Assembly: GCA_036253495.1 (NCBI GenBank)
Contig: GCA_036253495.1_4125.1
DNA length: 64,000 nucleotides
Reading direction: 5' to 3' (one strand)
From: a phage
How positions within the stretch are numbered: the first letter of the stretch is position 1; each line of letters begins with the position of its first letter. Shown in pieces: positions 2,516 through 38,665 of this stretch. A program made the translations under genes and the position numbers. A model generated the notes under the pieces. That model saw nothing but the letters and a program-made list of their open reading frames with translations. It searched no databases and had not been told where the DNA came from.

Positions 2516-3592
2516 ATGATTGACAATGCTATTATACAAAGTGTGAATTTATTTTTATCAAGTGATGCATTGTCAATCTCTAATACTATTTGGAAAGAGA
2601 AATACAAATGGCTTCCAGAAAATTTTAGTTTTGATATGCTGGAAACTGATTCGTATAGTGAAAATAATAACAATATTCATGGTTTTGTCCGAACTGGTAA
2701 AAATGGATATACAAAAATGTATTTTCATAGTTGTGATGTTTGTAAACAAGATTCGTCATTGCACGGTCTTGGTATTTTCGCATCTGTACGAAGTAATTTG
2801 GAAAAAGGTATAGTTGCATGTGATTGTTCCATAACTTCAAAACTAACAAAATATCAATATATTGCTAAAATTTATAAAAAATGTTTGGAACTTGGATACG
2901 AATTTATTGGATTTAATGAGGATTGGGAATCAACACAGCCAAAAGGACTAATCCATCTAAAATTATCATGTAATATTCATGGATTATGGAATACAACAAC
3001 AATTGATAATTTACTGTTCCACTCTAAAGGTTGTAAGGAATGTGGGAGACGTAAAATCAGCCAAGCTAGAACAATTGGAGATGAATTCCATATAAATGAG
3101 TTTTTCAAAACAGGTAAATTTAGTAAAGGTAGTAAGTTTTGGCGTTCTGACCGTTTGAATACTTATGGTTACAAGAATTATTGGTTTTATGAATGTTCAG
3201 TATGTCATATGGTAGTTGAATCACAGATTGGTAACCTAAAGGATGGAAAAGTACCATGTTTATGTAATGGAAACATCCAACAACAATGCTATATAAATTT
3301 AGTACTTGACAATAATATTCCAATTGCATTAAAATATGGTATAGCAAACAACTTCACAACGAGAGAAAAATCTCAAAATAAGCATTCAATCTATGATATT
3401 GTAAACAGTGGTGTTTGGGAATTTGAAACAGTATCATTGTGTAAATCAGCAGAAGCGGAATGTAAGAGAATTTTCTCACCAGTACTTGAAGCTCGTGAAA
3501 TGAAAGATGGATATACGGAAACTACATCACCATTAGATATTGACAAAATCATTGAAATATATGAGAATTGGGGTGGTGTGCGAATAAAATAA
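2516..3592 (+). CDS. hypothetical Cys-rich protein with several CxxC/CxC motifs
   Basis: 358 aa ORF; repeated C-x2-C and HG-containing segments suggest zinc-ribbon modules; function unknown. Confidence 0.5.
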   Translation: MIDNAIIQSVNLFLSSDALSISNTIWKEKYKWLPENFSFDMLETDSYSENNNNIHGFVRTGKNGYTKMYFHSCDVCKQDSSLHGLGIFASVRSNLEKGIVACDCSITSKLTKYQYIAKIYKKCLELGYEFIGFNEDWESTQPKGLIHLKLSCNIHGLWNTTTIDNLLFHSKGCKECGRRKISQARTIGDEFHINEFFKTGKFSKGSKFWRSDRLNTYGYKNYWFYECSVCHMVVESQIGNLKDGKVPCLCNGNIQQQCYINLVLDNNIPIALKYGIANNFTTREKSQNKHSIYDIVNSGVWEFETVSLCKSAEAECKRIFSPVLEAREMKDGYTETTSPLDIDKIIEIYENWGGVRIK

Positions 3593-23554: not shown

Positions 23555-24496
23555 ATGCAAATAGATAAATTATATACGGACGTAACTAACTTCCTCAACC
23601 AGAGTAACGCTGATTTAACAAATGAAAATGCAAATAAAGACGCTAAATGTGTTAATACACATCGTGATTTATTGGCAGGTATTCTTTCTAAACATTATTC
23701 CCAAGATGTGATTCCTGATGAATTGATGAAGTGGCATAATGAAGGTTACGGTCATATTCATGATTTAGACTATTACATTAGCCCATTAACAAACTGTTGT
23801 TTAGTTAATTATCCTGATATGCTTGCTAATGGCTTCATGATTGGTTGTGCCAAGATTGAAGAACCAAAAAGCTTTGGGGTAGCTTGTACAGTACTAACAC
23901 AGATTGTTCAGGCTGTGGCAAGTTCACAGTACGGTGGTCAGTCGTTGGCTCACATTGACACTGGCCTTGCACCATATGTACAAAAGTCATGGGATAAACT
24001 TCTAGAAAAACAAAAGAAATACAATCTTAGTACTGAATTCATCGAAGATGAGTTGCGTAAGGAAGTTTATGACGGTTGTCAAACAATTCTATATCAAACA
24101 AACTCAATGATCAGTACTAATGGTCAGGCTGCGTTCATTTCTTTGAGTTTAGGATTAGGTACATCTAAATTTGAAAAACTAATCACTGAACAATATTTGA
24201 AAGTACATGAAAATGGACTAGGTAAAGATAAGATTACTCCAGTATTTCCTAAAGTAATATTCTTTCTTCAGGATGGAATTAATATGAATACCAATGATAC
24301 TAACTATGATCTTAAACAGTTAGCTATGCGTTGTGCATCAAAAAGAATCTATCCAGACTTTGTTTCTGTACCATTGAACCATAAAGTAACTGGAAGTACC
24401 AGTACTGCTGTTACTCCTATGGGATGCAGAAGCTTCTTAGGTAAATGGGAAGATGAAAATGGCAACGAACAGTACAATGGCCGTTTCAATTTGGGT
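23555..24496 (+). CDS. nrdD: anaerobic ribonucleoside-triphosphate reductase NrdD, exon 1
   Basis: N-terminal NrdD-like region ending ...PMGCRSFLGKWEDENGNEQYNGRFNLG, matching the E. coli NrdD segment PMGCRSFLG...NLG recalled from memory; exon end placed at T24496. Confidence 0.72.
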
Positions 24497-25666
24497 AGAC
24501 ATACATGCCCCATTGCTGAGTGATCAGTAATTGCAAACACGTTAACATGCTGGAACCCCCTAAAGCCATAAACACTACAACGCAATCTTAATAGATAAAC
24601 GTGAATGTTACGAGAGTAGAAAAAAGTTTTATGGATATATAATAAGTTGTAAATCATATTATATGTACAATGGGAAATCAGCAGCCAAGCCATCATTAAT
24701 ATAATGGTGGAAGGTTCAACGAGTATAATACGTGACTCTAATATTAAAACTTCCATAAATAATATTTTATGGAGGATATATAATGAGAAAAGGAAGTATA
24801 TATAAAATAGAATGTATAGTAACTAATAAAGTTTATATTGGACAAACCGTTTTATATCCACCGATGAAAAGATGGGTGGAACACTGCCAAAACAATGATG
24901 AAAAATCATGTATTAGTAAAGCTATTAAAAAATTTGGTTTTGAAAATTTCACATTTCAAATTTTAAAAACTAATATTGATTTAAATAATCTTAATGATGA
25001 AGAAATAAAATATATTGAAATTTATGATAGTTATAAGAATGGTTACAACTCAACATTAGGTGGTCACCAAACCTTTAATGGAAGTAAAATAACTGAACTT
25101 GATGCTATAAAAATTATAGAATATATTAAATCATATAAAGATCTTTCATTCGTAGAAATAGCAAAAACTTTAAATGTTCCATACGGCTGTGTAAGTGATA
25201 TAAATTGTGGCGAAACTTGGTATCAAATAAATGAAACATACCCTATTAGAGATAACAAAAGAAATAAGATTGAAGATAATATAGATTCAATTTATGAGTT
25301 ATTGAGAAATGGTGTTTCTAGTATAGAAATTGCAAAAATATATAATGTTTCAAATGTCACCATTTGTAACGTTAATAATGGAACAATCTATCGAAACGAA
25401 TCAGTTGAATACCCAATTTTTAAACCACAAAATTCATCAAAACGACATTCTATTGAAATAGTTTCTAAGATTATTGATATGTTAATTAATACAGATAAAA
25501 ATTATTCTGAAATTGCAAAATGTTTAAATGTAGGAAGAAAAACTGTTGCAAATATCAATAACGGTTCTGGATATAAAGAACTATCAAATGAACTTGGTTA
25601 TATATCATTTCCTCTTCGTTAGAGTATGGTGTACTCTAATCCTTCATGAAAGTGAAGGTACAAATG
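24497..25666 (+). mobile_element. group I intron interrupting nrdD, carrying a GIY-YIG homing endonuclease ORF
   Basis: Exon ends in U; P-like ATGCTGGAA (24546), Q-like AATCAGCAGCC (24675), R-like GTTCAACGAG (24713); GACTCTAA (24735) pairs with TTAGAGT (25621) as P7; P9-like hairpin CCTTCA-TGAAAG-TGAAGG; terminal G at 25666; spliced product reads GRFNLG|VVSINLP in frame. Confidence 0.65.
24783..25622 (+). CDS. GIY-YIG homing endonuclease (intron-encoded)
   Basis: N-terminal IYKIECIVTNKVYIGQT (GIY-x10-YIG); SD GGAGG upstream; located inside nrdD intron. Confidence 0.8.
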   Translation: MRKGSIYKIECIVTNKVYIGQTVLYPPMKRWVEHCQNNDEKSCISKAIKKFGFENFTFQILKTNIDLNNLNDEEIKYIEIYDSYKNGYNSTLGGHQTFNGSKITELDAIKIIEYIKSYKDLSFVEIAKTLNVPYGCVSDINCGETWYQINETYPIRDNKRNKIEDNIDSIYELLRNGVSSIEIAKIYNVSNVTICNVNNGTIYRNESVEYPIFKPQNSSKRHSIEIVSKIIDMLINTDKNYSEIAKCLNVGRKTVANINNGSGYKELSNELGYISFPLR

Positions 25667-26530
25667 GTTGTCTCAATCAACCTACCGCTAATTGCTCTTG
25701 AAAGCACTACTGATGGTGATTTCTTTGATAAGATAGATGAGCATATGAACATTGCATACAGAGCACAGATGAACCGTGTAGAGCGTTTAAAAGGTACTAA
25801 GGCTAAACAGAACCCGATTCTGTTCATGGAAGGTGCTCTTGCACGTCTTGATGCAGAAGAAACTATTGACAAACTCTTCTACGATGGTTATGCTAGTATT
25901 AGTATTGGTTATGTAGGATTAGTTGAATGTTCAGAGATTTTGACTGGTTCAATCAGTAAAGAGTTCTGTATGTCAGTACTGAATTATATGAAAGTCAAAT
26001 GCGATGAGTTCAAAAAAGAGAGTAACATAGCTTTTAGTCTATATGGAACCCCAGCAGAGTCACTTTGCTACAAATTTGCACGTTGCATCGAATCTAAGTA
26101 CCCTTCAGTACTAAAACGTGATTACATCACAAATTCCTTCCATCAACCAGTATGGGTAGAAAGTTCACCATTTGATAAGTGGAGTTACGAAGAGGGCTTT
26201 GCTTACCTCAGCAATGGAGGAAACATCAGTTATGTGGAATCACCCAACCTAAGTAACAATATTCAAGCACTTGAGACTTTAGTCAATTACGCTTACACAA
26301 AGATTCCATATTTTGGCATCAACCAGCCAATTGACCAGTGTTTCGAGTGTGGGTATAAAGGTGAGTTCAGTGTAGATAAACACGGTTTTCATTGTCCAGT
26401 ATGTGATAATCGCAATGAGAAGACAATCTCAGTGATTCGTCGTGTTTCTGGATATTTGGGGAACCCATCGTCTCGTGGATTCAACAAAGGCAAACAACAA
26501 GAATGTTGTGAGCGTATACAACACAAATAA
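25667..26530 (+). CDS. nrdD: anaerobic ribonucleoside-triphosphate reductase NrdD, exon 2
   Basis: VVSINLPLIALE...; C-terminal Zn ribbon CFECG...CPVCDN and glycyl-radical motif RRVSGYLG. Confidence 0.75.
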   Translation, partial: VVSINLPLIALESTTDGDFFDKIDEHMNIAYRAQMNRVERLKGTKAKQNPILFMEGALARLDAEETIDKLFYDGYASISIGYVGLVECSEILTGSISKEFCMSVLNYMKVKCDEFKKESNIAFSLYGTPAESLCYKFARCIESKYPSVLKRDYITNSFHQPVWVESSPFDKWSYEEGFAYLSNGGNISYVESPNLSNNIQALETLVNYAYTKIPYFGINQPIDQCFECGYKGEFSVDKHGFHCPVCDNRNEKTISVIRRVSGYLGNPSSRGFNKGKQQECCERIQHK

Positions 26531-33602: not shown

Positions 33603-33634
33603 TTAAGCCTGTCTATTGACAGGCTTTTCTTTTA
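33603..33634 (+). terminator. intrinsic terminator (GCCTGTC-TATT-GACAGGC then TTTTCTTTT)
   Basis: Perfect hairpin after tail-fibre block. Confidence 0.6.
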
Positions 33635-33666
33635 TCCGTATAATGCTAAAAAACTAGGAGGAAACT

Positions 33667-34227
33667 ATGGTACAATCACGTTTTAGACCACCGCTGTCAC
33701 CAGCACAGTTACAACGTTTAAAAGAAAAAGAGCAGCACTTTCAGAATACCCTAGTAGTTCGTTTGCTATGCAAAAGTGTAACTCTTAAAGATTTTGTGAA
33801 AACCGATAATGAACGTAAATCACTTATCGAACTTAAGTACAAGTTAAGTAAGCATAAACTATATGGATTACTAGCAGAATACACCCAAAATCCATTCAGT
33901 GATCGTTGGTCTATGGTTCAAAAAAAACTGTGGGGTGGTGATGAAGAATTCACACTACGTGATTTAAAAAATGCAATCATGTTTAAGGTCGATTATACAC
34001 CAGCAGGGATTGAACACAGAACCGAAGAAACTATCATTCAATCAAGAGATTTATCATGTGTTGTTTCTTCAAACTTCGGTGTTCATTATGATATGCTTGA
34101 TGACGATGAGTTAATGATCCTGTTCCATGTGATTATTGGTGCTGAAGATATTAAAGAAAAGTTATCACAAATTGAAGAAGAACAGCGTAAATTCAAAATC
34201 CAAAAGAGAATAACTGATTTATATTAA
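33667..34227 (+). CDS. hypothetical protein, paralog family member 1 of 3
   Basis: 186 aa; shares TD-(N/E)-(E/D)-R motif region and coiled-coil-like C-terminus with next two genes. Confidence 0.45.
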   Translation: MVQSRFRPPLSPAQLQRLKEKEQHFQNTLVVRLLCKSVTLKDFVKTDNERKSLIELKYKLSKHKLYGLLAEYTQNPFSDRWSMVQKKLWGGDEEFTLRDLKNAIMFKVDYTPAGIEHRTEETIIQSRDLSCVVSSNFGVHYDMLDDDELMILFHVIIGAEDIKEKLSQIEEEQRKFKIQKRITDLY

Positions 34228-34236
34228 GAGGTTACT

Positions 34237-34737
34237 ATGTTTTTCAAAAAGAAAAATAATGATCACAAAAGAGAAAATGTAGAGTGGTGTACATTAATTC
34301 TTCCAGTACTGATGAAAAGCTATTCTTTAAAAGAAATTATCCGTACTGATGAAGATCGTAGAACTATACTTAAAATTAAAGAAATGTTAAGTTCTCATTC
34401 TCTAATGAAACTAATCACAGACCTAGTTAAAGAACCATACGGTGAACGTTGGTTATATGAACCAGTATTCATATATGGTAATCATATCAACCGTGTAAAA
34501 TTGTTTGATACCGAAACTAAGGTTGATTTTAATGCAGTAACATATTCATCTAAAGATTATGATGAAAAACATACATTTGTTTATATTAACGGAGATGCGA
34601 ATATTCTACCTAAACATGAACAAATGTTTTTGTTTCATTTACTCGTTGCACTTCGTGAGCTTGAAACAAAGTACAAGAAGTTAGAATACGAGCAGCATAA
34701 ACTTAATGAATTTAATAAATTAAAAGGATTATACTAA
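34237..34737 (+). CDS. hypothetical protein, paralog family member 2 of 3
   Basis: 166 aa; paralogous to 33667-34227. Confidence 0.45.
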   Translation: MFFKKKNNDHKRENVEWCTLILPVLMKSYSLKEIIRTDEDRRTILKIKEMLSSHSLMKLITDLVKEPYGERWLYEPVFIYGNHINRVKLFDTETKVDFNAVTYSSKDYDEKHTFVYINGDANILPKHEQMFLFHLLVALRELETKYKKLEYEQHKLNEFNKLKGLY

Positions 34738-35243
34738 TGTTCTTCGGTAAACATAAAGTAAAAGATGATGGTATTCTTCAGTACTTAGTTGCGTTGATTT
34801 TAAACAAAAGTACTTTATTAGTACCTAATATTAAATCAGACAAAGATCGCAGAGAAATTATTCAAAACAAATATCTTCTTTCAAAATGTGATCCTGTTAT
34901 CTATGCATTTTGTAAGTACTGTTCAAAAAACTTGTTCAGTATTCATGTAGATTTTGAAAGACAAGAAAGCAGCACACGAAATTCTTGTTTTAAAGTGTAT
35001 ATGATTAATGATTTAAATCGTGGGAATCGAGGGTTCATGTTCTGGATGGACGGACGTGATATACGTGTGCGTATTAAAATGTCAGTTGGGTGGAAGGATT
35101 TTTCAACTTCTGTATCTGATTTTCTTGTACTTCACGCACTATATAACAGTATTACTAACGTGAAAGATATCGACAAGAAAATTCAGGAACAAAAAGAATT
35201 GGATGATGCAAAGAACGAATACTTACAACATTACAGGAGTTAA
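34737..35243 (+). CDS. hypothetical protein, paralog family member 3 of 3 (divergent)
   Basis: 168 aa; same size and N-terminal MFF-K start as member 2. Confidence 0.4.
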   Translation: MFFGKHKVKDDGILQYLVALILNKSTLLVPNIKSDKDRREIIQNKYLLSKCDPVIYAFCKYCSKNLFSIHVDFERQESSTRNSCFKVYMINDLNRGNRGFMFWMDGRDIRVRIKMSVGWKDFSTSVSDFLVLHALYNSITNVKDIDKKIQEQKELDDAKNEYLQHYRS

Positions 35244-35246
35244 TAT

Positions 35247-35648
35247 ATGGATCTTGATGATGTGTATAGCACCATAAGACAGATGGATTCGTATAAAAAA
35301 GTATATAGTGGTTACAAGAGTGATAAACAATTTTATGGAATCGGGGAGTATGATGTAATATCATTCGAATACGATGATACTGGTGAAAGTTCCATTAATA
35401 TTGTTTGTCCTCGTGACCGTGAAAATAACTTCATGTACGTTGAAATCAATAATGATGGTTTACACTTTACTAAAATATTAAATGGTGGCAAACAATCTAT
35501 TTCTCTGGATTTATCCGAAGAAGAAAAGTTCTTTCAAGAAGATACTATAATCAATCTAGGTTTTAGTTTATCAGAATACAAAGTTCTTCATAAAGATTTC
35601 ATGAAGTACTATAATGGGTTTCTTAAGGAGCTAACATTACATCTATGA
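35247..35648 (+). CDS. hypothetical protein
   Basis: 133 aa ORF. Confidence 0.45.
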   Translation: MDLDDVYSTIRQMDSYKKVYSGYKSDKQFYGIGEYDVISFEYDDTGESSINIVCPRDRENNFMYVEINNDGLHFTKILNGGKQSISLDLSEEEKFFQEDTIINLGFSLSEYKVLHKDFMKYYNGFLKELTLHL

Positions 35649-36886
35649 ATAATAACAAATTTCTTGAACAAACAATTGTGAAGCACTTAGCAGGTTCACA
35701 AGCGTATGGAACCAGTACACCTGAAAGTGATACGGATTATCGTGGTATTTTTCTTGCTAACAAAGAGTTCATTCTGACACCTTTTTATAATGTAAAAGAA
35801 GTTTCTGATTCAAGAGAAGAAGATACTAAATTCTATGAACTAAACCAGTACTTAAGACTATACACAGAGGCTAACCCAAATATCCTTGAATCACTATGGG
35901 TTGATCCTGAACACATCGTAGAAAGTACTGAAATCTATGATTATCTACGTACATTCAATCAACAATTACTTAGTTCTAAGATCGCATTCTCTTATACCGG
36001 TTATGCATATAATCAGGTTAAACGTATGTCCAATCACCACGGGTGGATGGATAAAGAGCGTATTGCTGAAAAACGTCTAAATGAAATCTTAGAAGATTTT
36101 CCTGTAGATGAAACTTTAGCATGGATGTATGAAAACTTCCCACACTATTTGGTAGAACGTTTAGATACTTCTAAACTACATCCATTTAATGCTAAGAAAA
36201 TAGATTTTGAAAAATACATGCGTGATACTTCATTGCAGTTAGTTTCGACTCATCCGTTGAAACAGTATCATTTTGTACGTTTAGTACATAATTACAGTAC
36301 TGATAAAGTACTAGACCGTGATTTCAACTTATTGGATTATAACAATGGGTACGAATTAATTCATTACGGTGAAAATATCTTTGGTGTTATTATCAATCCT
36401 AATGAAAGTACAATTAACGCTGATGGTTCTTTACGTTATTTCAACAAAGAACGCAGTACTGAAGAATTGAAAGTGCGACCTGAACTCATTGTTAAATTCA
36501 ATGAAAAAGAATACAGTGAGAACAGTGAGAACCGTAAAAGTTATCACAAATGGAAAGAGAATCGTAATGCTAAACGTGCAATTCTTGAATCCAAACACGG
36601 CTACGATTGCAAACATGCTATGCATACGATCAGACTTTTGAATACAGCCGAAGAAGCATTACAAAGCGGTATTATCCTTGTTAAACGTCCTGATGCTGAT
36701 ATGCTAATGGATATCCGCAACGGTAAATGGAAGTATGAAGAAGTCATGGATTATTTCAATGAAAAGGTTGACTATATCCGCAATGTGGTGTATCCTAAGT
36801 CAGTTCTACCAAAGAAACCAAACATTCAACTAGCTGCAAAAGTTCTAATCGATATTCGAGAAATGCAGTGGTATGGTAAAAAATAA
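35645..36886 (+). CDS. nucleotidyltransferase-fold protein (Pol-beta superfamily)
   Basis: Classic motif HLAGSQAYGTSTPESDTDYRGIF (GS-x10-DxD); 413 aa with large C-terminal extension. Confidence 0.55.
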   Translation: MNNNKFLEQTIVKHLAGSQAYGTSTPESDTDYRGIFLANKEFILTPFYNVKEVSDSREEDTKFYELNQYLRLYTEANPNILESLWVDPEHIVESTEIYDYLRTFNQQLLSSKIAFSYTGYAYNQVKRMSNHHGWMDKERIAEKRLNEILEDFPVDETLAWMYENFPHYLVERLDTSKLHPFNAKKIDFEKYMRDTSLQLVSTHPLKQYHFVRLVHNYSTDKVLDRDFNLLDYNNGYELIHYGENIFGVIINPNESTINADGSLRYFNKERSTEELKVRPELIVKFNEKEYSENSENRKSYHKWKENRNAKRAILESKHGYDCKHAMHTIRLLNTAEEALQSGIILVKRPDADMLMDIRNGKWKYEEVMDYFNEKVDYIRNVVYPKSVLPKKPNIQLAAKVLIDIREMQWYGKK

Positions 36887-36895
36887 GAGGATTAT

Positions 36896-37321
36896 ATGCT
36901 GAATTCAACAATTATTGATGCACTACGTGTACTGAATCGCGAAGTTAGCCGTATCCATAAAAGTACTGATCGTTATAAAGTAATGCATGAAATTAAACTA
37001 GAATTAGAAGCTATCAATAAGGGTGAATGGTTCCTTGAACCAGAATACCGTACACGTGGACCAACTGACGTTGAGAAAGCAATTGCAAAATTCATTTCTG
37101 GACGTTATGGTGATGTATCAGAGGCAGATGTACTGATGAATTTACATTTAACCTCCTTAGAAATTGAAGAAAAATTCAAATTTGATTCACTGGACTGGGT
37201 AGAAATGATCATGGAACTTGAAGATGAATTTAAGGTTGAGATCGAAGATAAGTATGAATCTGGAGATACCAGAATCGTGCATCTCGTTGAACATGTACAA
37301 ACAATGATCGATAAACGCTAA
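36896..37321 (+). CDS. hypothetical protein
   Basis: 141 aa ORF. Confidence 0.45.
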   Translation: MLNSTIIDALRVLNREVSRIHKSTDRYKVMHEIKLELEAINKGEWFLEPEYRTRGPTDVEKAIAKFISGRYGDVSEADVLMNLHLTSLEIEEKFKFDSLDWVEMIMELEDEFKVEIEDKYESGDTRIVHLVEHVQTMIDKR

Positions 37322-37366
37322 TTTTAAGCACTCTAAATAATATCATCATCTATAGGAGATATTATT

Positions 37367-37741
37367 ATGAGTGTACTAGATATTATTGTTTCAAAAGTAC
37401 TGATACCGTTCTGGAAACCAATTGCGTTTGTTCTCCTGATGGCATCATGTACTTTTGGTGGCTGGAAGGCTAATACTTTTTATACTGGGTATAAAGAAAG
37501 TATTGAATTAAAAATAGAGAAGAAAGTAGATGCGGCTTTAAGTAAAATTGAAAGCCAAAATACCAAAAACTATGTAGAAACTAAACAGATAATGCAAAAT
37601 AATGCAAAGGTAATAGAAACTAAAGTACCAGTTATTATTGAGCGTGAAGTGTATAGAAATGTATGTTTAGATGAAGAAGGGGTAAAACTTTTGAATGATC
37701 TAAAACAAAATTCACTTGCAGCTAGAGAGAAATTTAAATGA
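37367..37741 (+). CDS. i-spanin-like membrane protein
   Basis: N-terminal TM helix then charged, coiled-coil-like region; immediately upstream of a lipoprotein gene. Confidence 0.4.
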   Translation: MSVLDIIVSKVLIPFWKPIAFVLLMASCTFGGWKANTFYTGYKESIELKIEKKVDAALSKIESQNTKNYVETKQIMQNNAKVIETKVPVIIEREVYRNVCLDEEGVKLLNDLKQNSLAAREKFK

Positions 37742-38052
37742 AATACATATTAACATTCTTGATTACTTTTATGTTTATCACTGGGTGTTCTAATAAGGTT
37801 CCAGTTCAAGCGTCACCAATAATCACCCAGGAAATCTTATTAGAACGATGCGAAGAAGATACACCAATTCCTAAAAAAATTGTTGTTGACTCACATGGTA
37901 ATAGAGGATATGCTGGTGATGAAATTCTTAACGTTCTGACGCGTTGGGATTCCATGTACAATGAATGTGCACTGAGATATGATGCACTAATTGATACAAT
38001 TCGCAAACTCCAAGACCAAAATATTCGTGTTAACATAAAAGTTAAGGAATAG
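37738..38052 (+). CDS. o-spanin-like lipoprotein
   Basis: Signal peptide with lipobox ITGCS; start overlaps upstream stop. Confidence 0.45.
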   Translation: MKYILTFLITFMFITGCSNKVPVQASPIITQEILLERCEEDTPIPKKIVVDSHGNRGYAGDEILNVLTRWDSMYNECALRYDALIDTIRKLQDQNIRVNIKVKE

Positions 38053-38053
38053 T

Positions 38054-38665
38054 ATGTCTAAATATCATGTTTATTATGTAACCAAATTGAGTTTACTAGA
38101 TGAACTCAATCATACTAGTACCAAAATGAAACGTTATACTTATAATGGTATTACTTTCAGATACTTTCCACAAAAAGTACTAACATTCGTTAAGAATTGT
38201 AAGTGCGTTGCTTGTGGCATCGAGGCTACAGAAGTTCGAATCGAACGTTCTAACTGTAGTGATCCGGTATATGGTAAACCGCATTTAAATGTGTATGCAG
38301 TATGTGGTCTTTATGAAGTTATGATGACTGTAGATCATAATCATCTTGCATCTAAAGGTGGTGCTGATTTGGAGTCAAACTTCAATACTATGTGTGCGAG
38401 ATGTAATCAGTTGCGTTCAAATAAAACTGAAACAGTTGATGAATTCCTTGAGAAAGTCAAAAGCCGAAATCTACTTGAAGAACATATGAATCGTTATTTC
38501 AATAAGATTGAGAAGGAAAGTAAACGTCCTACACCAGAAATGCTCGAAGAACGTAGATTGCGTCAAGAGCTATGGGATAACGATCATCTGTGGCATGTTC
38601 GTGAGTACGGGCGACACATGAAAGCATTAAAAAAGGCACAAAAGCTGTTGGATAAACATGAGTAA
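38054..38665 (+). CDS. HNH endonuclease
   Basis: CKCVACG ... DHNH ... CARCNQ arrangement typical of HNH nucleases. Confidence 0.55.
   Translation: MSKYHVYYVTKLSLLDELNHTSTKMKRYTYNGITFRYFPQKVLTFVKNCKCVACGIEATEVRIERSNCSDPVYGKPHLNVYAVCGLYEVMMTVDHNHLASKGGADLESNFNTMCARCNQLRSNKTETVDEFLEKVKSRNLLEEHMNRYFNKIEKESKRPTPEMLEERRLRQELWDNDHLWHVREYGRHMKALKKAQKLLDKHE

Follow-up and report, generated by a model that had tools for sequence, protein, structure and literature searches.

The gene and its product

The stretch of phage DNA analysed here, 64,000 nucleotides (nt) in length and hereafter called the window (contig GCA_036253495.1_4125.1 of GenBank assembly GCA_036253495.1), comes from an Asteriusvirus jumbo phage of the 121Q/PBECO4 group of E. 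coli. Its nearest relative is Escherichia phage A4, and window position 1 lies at about position 83,995 of A4. The subject of this analysis is a gene of the window (Table 1) for a nucleotidyltransferase (NTase) of 413 amino acids (aa), which is a member of RlaP, a named family whose characterisation is recent and whose occurrence in jumbo phages is on record. The family reportedly owes its name to Burroughs and Aravind in 2016, as recounted in a review of 2021 and a preprint of 2025.

The open reading frame (ORF) is uninterrupted over 413 codons, from the ATG at 35645 to the TAA at 36884-36886. Its start codon overlaps the stop codon of an upstream 133-aa ORF (ATGA), an AAGGAG sequence lies 14 nt 5' of the start, and 9 nt separate the stop from the start of the next ORF. 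Compared with A4 (95% nt and 97% aa identity), 44 codons differ synonymously only and 11 alter the amino acid, with 10, 2 and 50 differences at the first, second and third codon positions. The comparison with phage 121Q gave 137 synonymous-only and 52 amino-acid-changing codons, third positions again dominating. The NTase gene is thus real, intact and under purifying selection. A further 33 Asteriusvirus jumbo phages, 121Q and PBECO4 among them, have counterparts with 80-90% nt identity. The orthologues of the group, which include A4_502 and 121Q gp506, already carry the label "nucleotidyltransferase" or "hypothetical protein". A 99%-identical protein from a 357.8-kilobase (kb) contig is public as "nucleotidyltransferase domain-containing protein".

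Table 1. Features of the NTase gene, its product, its surroundings and its extended relatives (positions are those of the window).
Feature	Position	Strand	Basis or remark
Long-form RlaP-family NTase gene, complete	35645..36886	+	ORF and translation, PF10127, phrog_388; 413 aa
Pol-beta NTase core, residues 1-112	35645..35980	+	beta1, G17-S18 and helix, beta2 with D29-x-D31, beta3 with D60
Catalytic carboxylates D29, D31	35729-35737	+	alignment
Third carboxylate D60	35822-35824	+	alignment
Helical insert of ~65 aa, residues ~137-201	36053..36247	+	gap pattern in both alignments; model helices 155-200
Beta-rich middle domain, residues ~207-285	36263..36499	+	model strands 211-216, 236-240, 245-250, 281-285; alignments
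C-terminal all-helical domain, residues 287-410, HEPN/KNTase-C-like	36503..36874	+	last helix 394-410
Subfamily motif W303-K-x-N-R-N308...Y320-D-C-K-H-A-M-H327-x-x-R330	36551-36634	+	in C-terminal domain
Terminator-like hairpin	33605-33626	+	overlaps promoter
Perfect sigma-70 consensus promoter, TTGACA-17-TATAAT	33616-33644	+	score 12/12
Three weakly paralogous small ORFs (166-186 aa)	33667-34227, 34237-34737, 34737-35243	+	paralogy by BLASTP
Small ORF, 133 aa	35247-35648	+	stop overlaps NTase start
CCA-adding-type tRNA nucleotidyltransferase homologue, 377 aa	49852..50985	+	PF01743 PolyA_pol head E=6.7e-18, PF12627 RNA-binding domain
Long-form RlaP-DEDD fusions, 528-674 aa			P0148, P0162, P0164, P0185, P0192, P0217
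Intein-bearing homologues, ~700 aa			P0121, P0122, P0123, P0126, P0135, P0136, P0143, P0188, P0201, P0216

Family membership

A first-pass annotation, made from the sequence of the window, had picked out the motif HLAGSQAYGTSTPESDTDYRGIF (residues 14-36, nt 35684-35752, plus strand) as a GS...DxD signature and had placed the protein in the DNA polymerase beta (Pol-beta) superfamily. The motif by itself is of low information; the family matches lie far beyond chance. The protein matches PF10127 (RlaP, "RNA repair pathway DNA polymerase beta family") with E=1.8e-16 and 61 bits, where the gathering cut-off is 23, over residues 15-132 (profile positions 25-144 of 249), and phrog_388 ("nucleotidyltransferase") with E=2e-75 over residues 3-412. 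These matches, together with structural neighbours that are all Pol-beta NTases or HEPN-like helical domains, bear out the superfamily call. Homology to an enzyme of known function, which the same annotation had named as a finding that would speak against its reading, is essentially what was found. A scan of the protein against NCBIfam gave no match, and sequence searches of the PDB with the single protein, a long-form profile and a short-RlaP profile gave nothing useful.

Searches by tblastn found relatives in 1,590 phage records, T4 nrdC.11 among them. By BLASTP, the window protein and T4 NrdC.11 share 28% identity over 157 aa of the NTase core (E=1e-12) and 26% over 70 aa of the C-terminal helical region. 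A profile built from 35 homologues matched 10,314 cluster representatives among 1.84 billion at E<=1e-3, and 1,671 at E<=1e-30; at least 555 relatives lie in bacterial genomes. On these counts, the family is large and widespread.

Domain architecture

Conservation was read from an alignment of the 35 homologues, with identity down to 43%, which also served for an AlphaFold2 model (mean predicted local distance difference test score, pLDDT, 92.5; predicted template modelling score, pTM, 0.83). G17, S18, D29, D31 and D60 are invariant, in agreement with the motif noted in the first-pass annotation, as are an N77-P-N79...E82 motif and a C-terminal set comprising W303, K304, N306, R307, N308, D321, K323, H327 and R330. 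In a mixed alignment, T4 NrdC.11 and the bacterial homologues, long and short forms alike, keep the GS, the DxD and the third Asp.

The annotation had left about 350 aa beyond the motif unassigned while proposing a structure search as a check; its ORF and motif stand, the NTase core is present in the model, and the model and alignments now assign domains to the remainder. The core is followed by a 39-residue helix (residues 113-151) and then by the ~65-aa insert, which occurs only in forms of ~410 aa (Asteriusvirus and Eneladusvirus phages and metagenomic relatives) and is lacking in the ~350-aa forms, in bacterial homologues and in T4 NrdC.11. The beta-rich middle domain is common to the 350-aa phage forms and is missing from short canonical RlaP. 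The order of domains in the model (NTase, C-terminal helical domain, terminal helix) matches that of the PfRlaP crystal, the likeness being drawn from its published description.

Compared with canonical RlaP, the window protein shares a Pfam match above threshold, the catalytic residues and, by the published description, the order of NTase, C-terminal helical domain and terminal helix, as well as a genome with RNA repair enzymes (Rnl1 and Pnkp in the nearest relative A4, the CCA-adding enzyme in the window itself). It differs in being ~160 residues longer, owing to the middle domain and the jumbo-phage insert, in the absence of a ligase beside its gene, and in its C-terminal motif, which is WKxNRN...YD[C/T]KHAMHxxRL in place of KxLLYxYRV. 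T4 NrdC.11 (336 aa) is homologous to it at the NTase core and in the helical domain of the C terminus and is likewise phage-encoded, non-structural and carried in a genome with Pnkp and an RNA ligase, but its middle region is not alignable, and it lacks both the WKxNRN motif and the jumbo insert. The ~350-aa proteins of phrog_388, which are encoded by environmental and Vequintavirinae-like phages (gp225 of Klebsiella phage KaOmega is an example), are homologous over the full length, with 32-40% identity over 97-99% of the protein and the same middle and C-terminal domains, without the 65-aa insert.

Published biochemistry of RlaP

Two Pseudomonas enzymes, PfRlaP and PaRlaP, label RNA, not DNA or protein, by adding one or two nucleoside monophosphates (NMPs, or dNMPs) onto RNA 3'-OH ends, and both favour Mn2+ (Carruthers, Fatma and Huang, bioRxiv 10.64898/2025.12.29.696909). 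In a nicked tRNA mimic they prefer the 3' end at the break, and RlaP raises the aminoacylation of repaired tRNA missing one anticodon-loop nucleotide; it was proposed to be an antidote to nucleotide-excising ribotoxins such as RloC (bioRxiv 10.64898/2025.12.29.696909). The same study assigned T4 NrdC.11 to cluster 5 of the family, and its PfRlaP crystal structure consists of an N-terminal NTase domain and a C-terminal helical domain, the last helix of which packs back on the NTase (bioRxiv 10.64898/2025.12.29.696909). An earlier genomic survey had found RlaP to be the NTase with the highest prevalence in jumbo phages, distributed in a way that mirrors the RNA ligases, and had predicted that it puts back lost nucleotides ahead of ligation (Iyer et al., 2021, PMC7824862).

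Neighbourhoods and architectures of relatives

Gene neighbourhoods were sampled at 80 bacterial loci, from which 145 immediate neighbours were taken, and at 80 viral loci. PF10127 proteins themselves make up 36 of the 145 bacterial neighbours: by local hidden Markov model search, at least 34 of the 80 loci have a long form (300-390 aa) beside a short canonical RlaP (~250-290 aa, matching the Pfam model over its full length). The paired genes lie on the same strand and their ORFs often overlap or abut (L012-L087; e.g., L025:7129-9128 and L056:7077-9079). The two forms are told apart by their C-terminal motifs, YD[T/C]KHAMHxxRL in long versus KxLLYxYRV in short forms, and their adjoining arrangement suggests a module of two subunits or two steps. 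The phage carries a long form without a short RlaP. The other bacterial neighbours include the CCA-adding enzyme (4), Hen1 (2), RtcB (1) and RNA cyclase/RtcA (1). One of the nominally bacterial loci, L008 (CAZFPB010000002.1, 330 kb, binned as Pseudobdellovibrionaceae), has RecA/UvsX-like and gp32-like genes flanking the NTase homologue and thus looks like a large phage genome.

Linkage to CCA-adding genes was counted in the 41 non-jumbo phage loci that had enough upstream flank. Such a gene was present in 14, lying 0.1-2.7 kb upstream in 13 and 3.8 kb downstream in one; several of the 14 are related Vequintavirinae and hence not independent. The phrog_388 genes usually follow the CCA-adding gene at a distance of 0.1-2.7 kb; in the window the two are 13 kb apart. 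Adjacency to Rnl1 and to Pnkp was seen once each among the 80 viral loci.

A further indication comes from fusions: all six extended relatives tested carry a C-terminal DEDD 3'-5' exonuclease domain (PF00929 RNase_T). No DEDD exonuclease resembling the fused ones was found in the window or in any examined locus. The CCA linkage, the Hen1, RtcB and RtcA neighbours and the DEDD fusions together point to the 3' ends of nucleic acids as the site of action, the ends of tRNA being the simplest reading.

An intein is present in about 10 of the 150 top-ranking representatives. These ~700-aa homologues have an insert of ~330 aa at a single site, the D321/C322 junction of YD/CKHAMH; that of P0122 has Cys as its first residue and Asn as its last, with Cys coming next, and includes a LAGLIDADG domain, which marks it as an intein. 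Inteins favour active-centre sites of this kind. The window protein has the Cys at the intein +1 position and no intein.

Surroundings of the gene in the phage

The hairpin and promoter at 33605-33644 probably form the start of the transcription unit that holds the NTase gene, and the promoter suggests early transcription by host polymerase. The total of promoter-like sites in the region was not above the shuffled expectation, and the 12/12 site is a consensus match only, not proof. None of the four small ORFs between the promoter and the NTase gene has a Pfam match. An Erwinia jumbo phage has weak relatives of one of the three paralogous ORFs upstream of its NTase gene; the 133-aa ORF was not detectable beside the orthologue there. 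No partner among the small ORFs is kept beyond the genus, and a conserved partner gene was therefore rejected.

Downstream, a 141-aa ORF (36896-37321) has a sub-threshold match to the phosphopantetheine attachment site family, PF00550 (E=0.0012, 19.5 bits versus a cut-off of 20.8), and may have a carrier-protein-like fold. It is the homologue of A4_505 and follows the NTase gene directly; in A4 and 121Q, two tail-fibre genes (A4_503/504, ~3.4 kb) come after the NTase gene, and these are missing from the window (36886-36917).

The CCA-adding-type gene lies 13 kb downstream of the NTase gene on the same strand. Its product corresponds to A4_536, shares 46% identity with KaOmega gp231 and is likely a functional companion of the NTase in tRNA end repair. 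A4 encodes, in addition, an Rnl1-type RNA ligase (PF09511 and PF20819) and a T4-type Pnkp (PF25109 and P-loop kinase), 41-43 kb upstream of the NTase gene and 6-9 kb before the point at which the window starts; within the 64-kb window there is no second RlaP paralogue, Rnl1 or Pnkp. With Rnl1 and Pnkp in A4 and the CCA-adding enzyme in the window, the tRNA repair set of the phage is full, though scattered. No tRNA genes were found in the window, the 80 viral loci or the examined A4 segments, and an Rfam scan of the window returned no family.

Two other departures from A4 lie elsewhere in the window. The nrdD gene for the anaerobic ribonucleotide reductase, a single 601-aa ORF in A4, is split into ORFs at 23555-24523 and 25646-26530, corresponding to residues 1-314 and 315-600 of A4 NrdD, with a free-standing GIY-YIG homing-endonuclease gene (24783-25622) between the halves; no Rfam intron was found at the split gene (23555-26530). 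In addition, a 358-aa ORF (2516-3592) with three CapR homology domains (PF21817, E=1.9e-18) lies in a 1.1-kb segment absent from A4 and inserted just after the DNA ligase gene (1083-2501).

Proposed function

The favoured explanation, to which a probability of roughly 0.6 was assigned, is that the product is catalytically active and extends RNA 3' ends without a template, as a nucleotidyltransferase of a long-form RlaP subfamily that acts in tRNA-end repair. Its Pol-beta core (G17-S18, D29, D31, D60) would bind two divalent metals, probably Mn2+, together with a nucleoside triphosphate, and would add one or two NMPs to an RNA 3' end. In the infected cell, nucleotides stripped from tRNA ends by host defence ribonucleases would be restored in this way; breaks in the anticodon loop would then be finished by the T4-type Pnkp and the Rnl1-type RNA ligase, and/or acceptor ends by the CCA-adding enzyme. 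The NTase is thus most likely an ordinary part of a phage tRNA-repair kit rather than a signalling enzyme. Among the three functions offered by the first-pass annotation (RNA modification, signalling and a toxin-antitoxin component), RNA modification is the one that the RlaP assignment upholds, its bacterial members extending RNA 3'-OH ends.

The analysis shows the membership in the family, the intact catalytic residues, the fold, the purifying selection and the presence of partner enzymes (in A4, Pnkp and Rnl1; in the window, the CCA-adding enzyme). That the substrate is RNA, how many nucleotides are added, which metal is used and that the role is one of counter-defence are, in contrast, inferred.

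Several observations weigh against this explanation. The PF10127 match is limited to the N-terminal half of the model, as it is in T4 NrdC.11 and the bacterial long forms, while short forms match over the full length. The characterised Pseudomonas enzymes belong to a different similarity cluster and are, by the paper's description, apparently of the short canonical type, so that their activity is transferred to the window protein by analogy of family. There is no operon link between the NTase and a ligase in this phage, the Rnl1 and Pnkp genes of A4 lying far off and outside the window, and RNA ligases are rare beside the long form in the loci sampled (Rnl1 at 1 of 80 viral loci, RtcB at 1 of 80 bacterial loci). 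The closest solved fold is that of HalB, which makes DNA oligomers from deoxyadenosine triphosphate (dATP). The authors of the RlaP study themselves point out that untemplated addition yields mostly wrong products and that the role in vivo is unproven (bioRxiv 10.64898/2025.12.29.696909). Finally, T4 nrdC.11 sits in a deletable block with no known phenotype (PMC9825161); the retained viability fits an accessory, host-dependent function.

The context of the relatives also bears on which tRNA end is served. Work on acceptor ends, alongside the CCA-adding enzyme, may be no less important for the long-form subfamily than work on anticodon-loop breaks alongside a ligase. The stricter version, in which tRNA 3' acceptor ends are the speciality of the subfamily and its partner is the CCA-adding enzyme rather than an RNA ligase, is tentative, with perhaps one chance in four.

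Less probable are acceptors other than RNA. The product might nucleotidylylate a protein, as do MNT antitoxins, GlnE and DrrA, or a small molecule, as do KNTase/ANT and LinB, for example to inactivate a host factor. KNTase/ANT(4'), LinB, MNT, GlnE and DrrA each occur as structural neighbours of the model, and the C-terminal domain is HEPN/KNTase-C-like; such an acceptor nevertheless runs counter to the biochemistry of the characterised members and to the gene neighbourhoods of the family, and it is considered improbable.

Slightly less credence was given to a terminal transferase for DNA 3' ends, adding (deoxy)nucleotides to phage or host DNA in replication, recombination or genome-end processing. 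PfRlaP takes dATP as a donor, but it extends neither DNA primers nor genomic DNA (bioRxiv 10.64898/2025.12.29.696909). The PF00929 DEDD family fused to relatives includes DNA proofreading exonucleases besides RNase T, and the NTase gene sits among nucleotide-metabolism genes, with nrdD/nrdG upstream and tk downstream, as T4 nrdC.11 and Bacillus phage Hobo gp137 likewise lie loosely near ribonucleotide reductase genes. This proximity is loose, however, with several kb and unrelated genes between, and was judged too weak to indicate a role in nucleotide metabolism; the conserved neighbours of the subfamily are the CCA-adding enzyme, Hen1, RtcB and RtcA.

Synthesis of a free (cyclic) oligonucleotide or short oligo-dA, in the manner of cGAS/DncV or HalB, with a product that would set off, imitate or dampen a nucleotide-gated immune effector of the host, is very unlikely. 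This reading is the signalling function of the first-pass annotation, and it is not supported. A scan against the PADLOC defence library gave no match for the NTase protein, and structures of cGAS/DncV-like nucleotidyltransferases (CD-NTases), namely CdnE and CdnC, were recovered only at Foldseek E>1 with template modelling (TM) scores of ~0.1; with no sequence-model match either, membership in the CD-NTases of cyclic-oligonucleotide-based antiphage signalling systems (CBASS) was rejected. Foldseek against the PDB gave weak matches only (E>=0.02). The anti-phage NTase Hailong HalB (PDB 9dbh/9dbj), which makes oligodeoxyadenylate, resembles the window protein at the level of fold only, with 14% identity and no sequence-profile relation, and PDB searches with the long- and short-form RlaP profiles found neither HalB nor any CD-NTase. 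The window NTase lacks a HalA partner, its family context differs, primer-independent synthesis is unsupported, and Pfam scans of the eight immediate neighbours (33667-38665) showed no channel-like family; a Hailong assignment was accordingly rejected. Moreover, the long-form relatives stand in a context of RNA-end enzymes rather than effectors, and the RlaPs characterised so far lengthen an RNA primer by 1-2 nt and then stop. Least probable of all is a HalB-like short oligo(deoxy)nucleotide that serves as a decoy, keeping a nucleotide-gated effector such as Hailong HalA off, in place of repair.

A toxin-antitoxin component, also suggested earlier, and a HEPN RNase were rejected, since no R-x(4-6)-H motif is conserved among the 35 homologues (R311...H318 is present in the window protein and H318 varies) and a Pfam scan of the immediate neighbours found no separate HEPN gene adjoining the NTase.

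Concluding remarks

As a discovery, the gene carries little weight: RlaP is an established Pfam family, publications of 2016 and 2021 reported it from jumbo phages and predicted that it restores nucleotides lost from RNA ends, its first biochemistry appeared in 2025, and the annotation of near-identical proteins as nucleotidyltransferases exists already. The gene is of value as a candidate for experiment, RlaP activity having so far been characterised for PfRlaP and PaRlaP. The pairing of long and short RlaPs, the CCA linkage, the DEDD fusions and the inteins at YD/CKHAMH offer hints as to substrate and active site. If tRNA-end repair is indeed the function of the long-form enzyme, the restoration of tRNA ends by the phage after attack by nucleotide-excising host nucleases would constitute a concrete mechanism of counter-defence.

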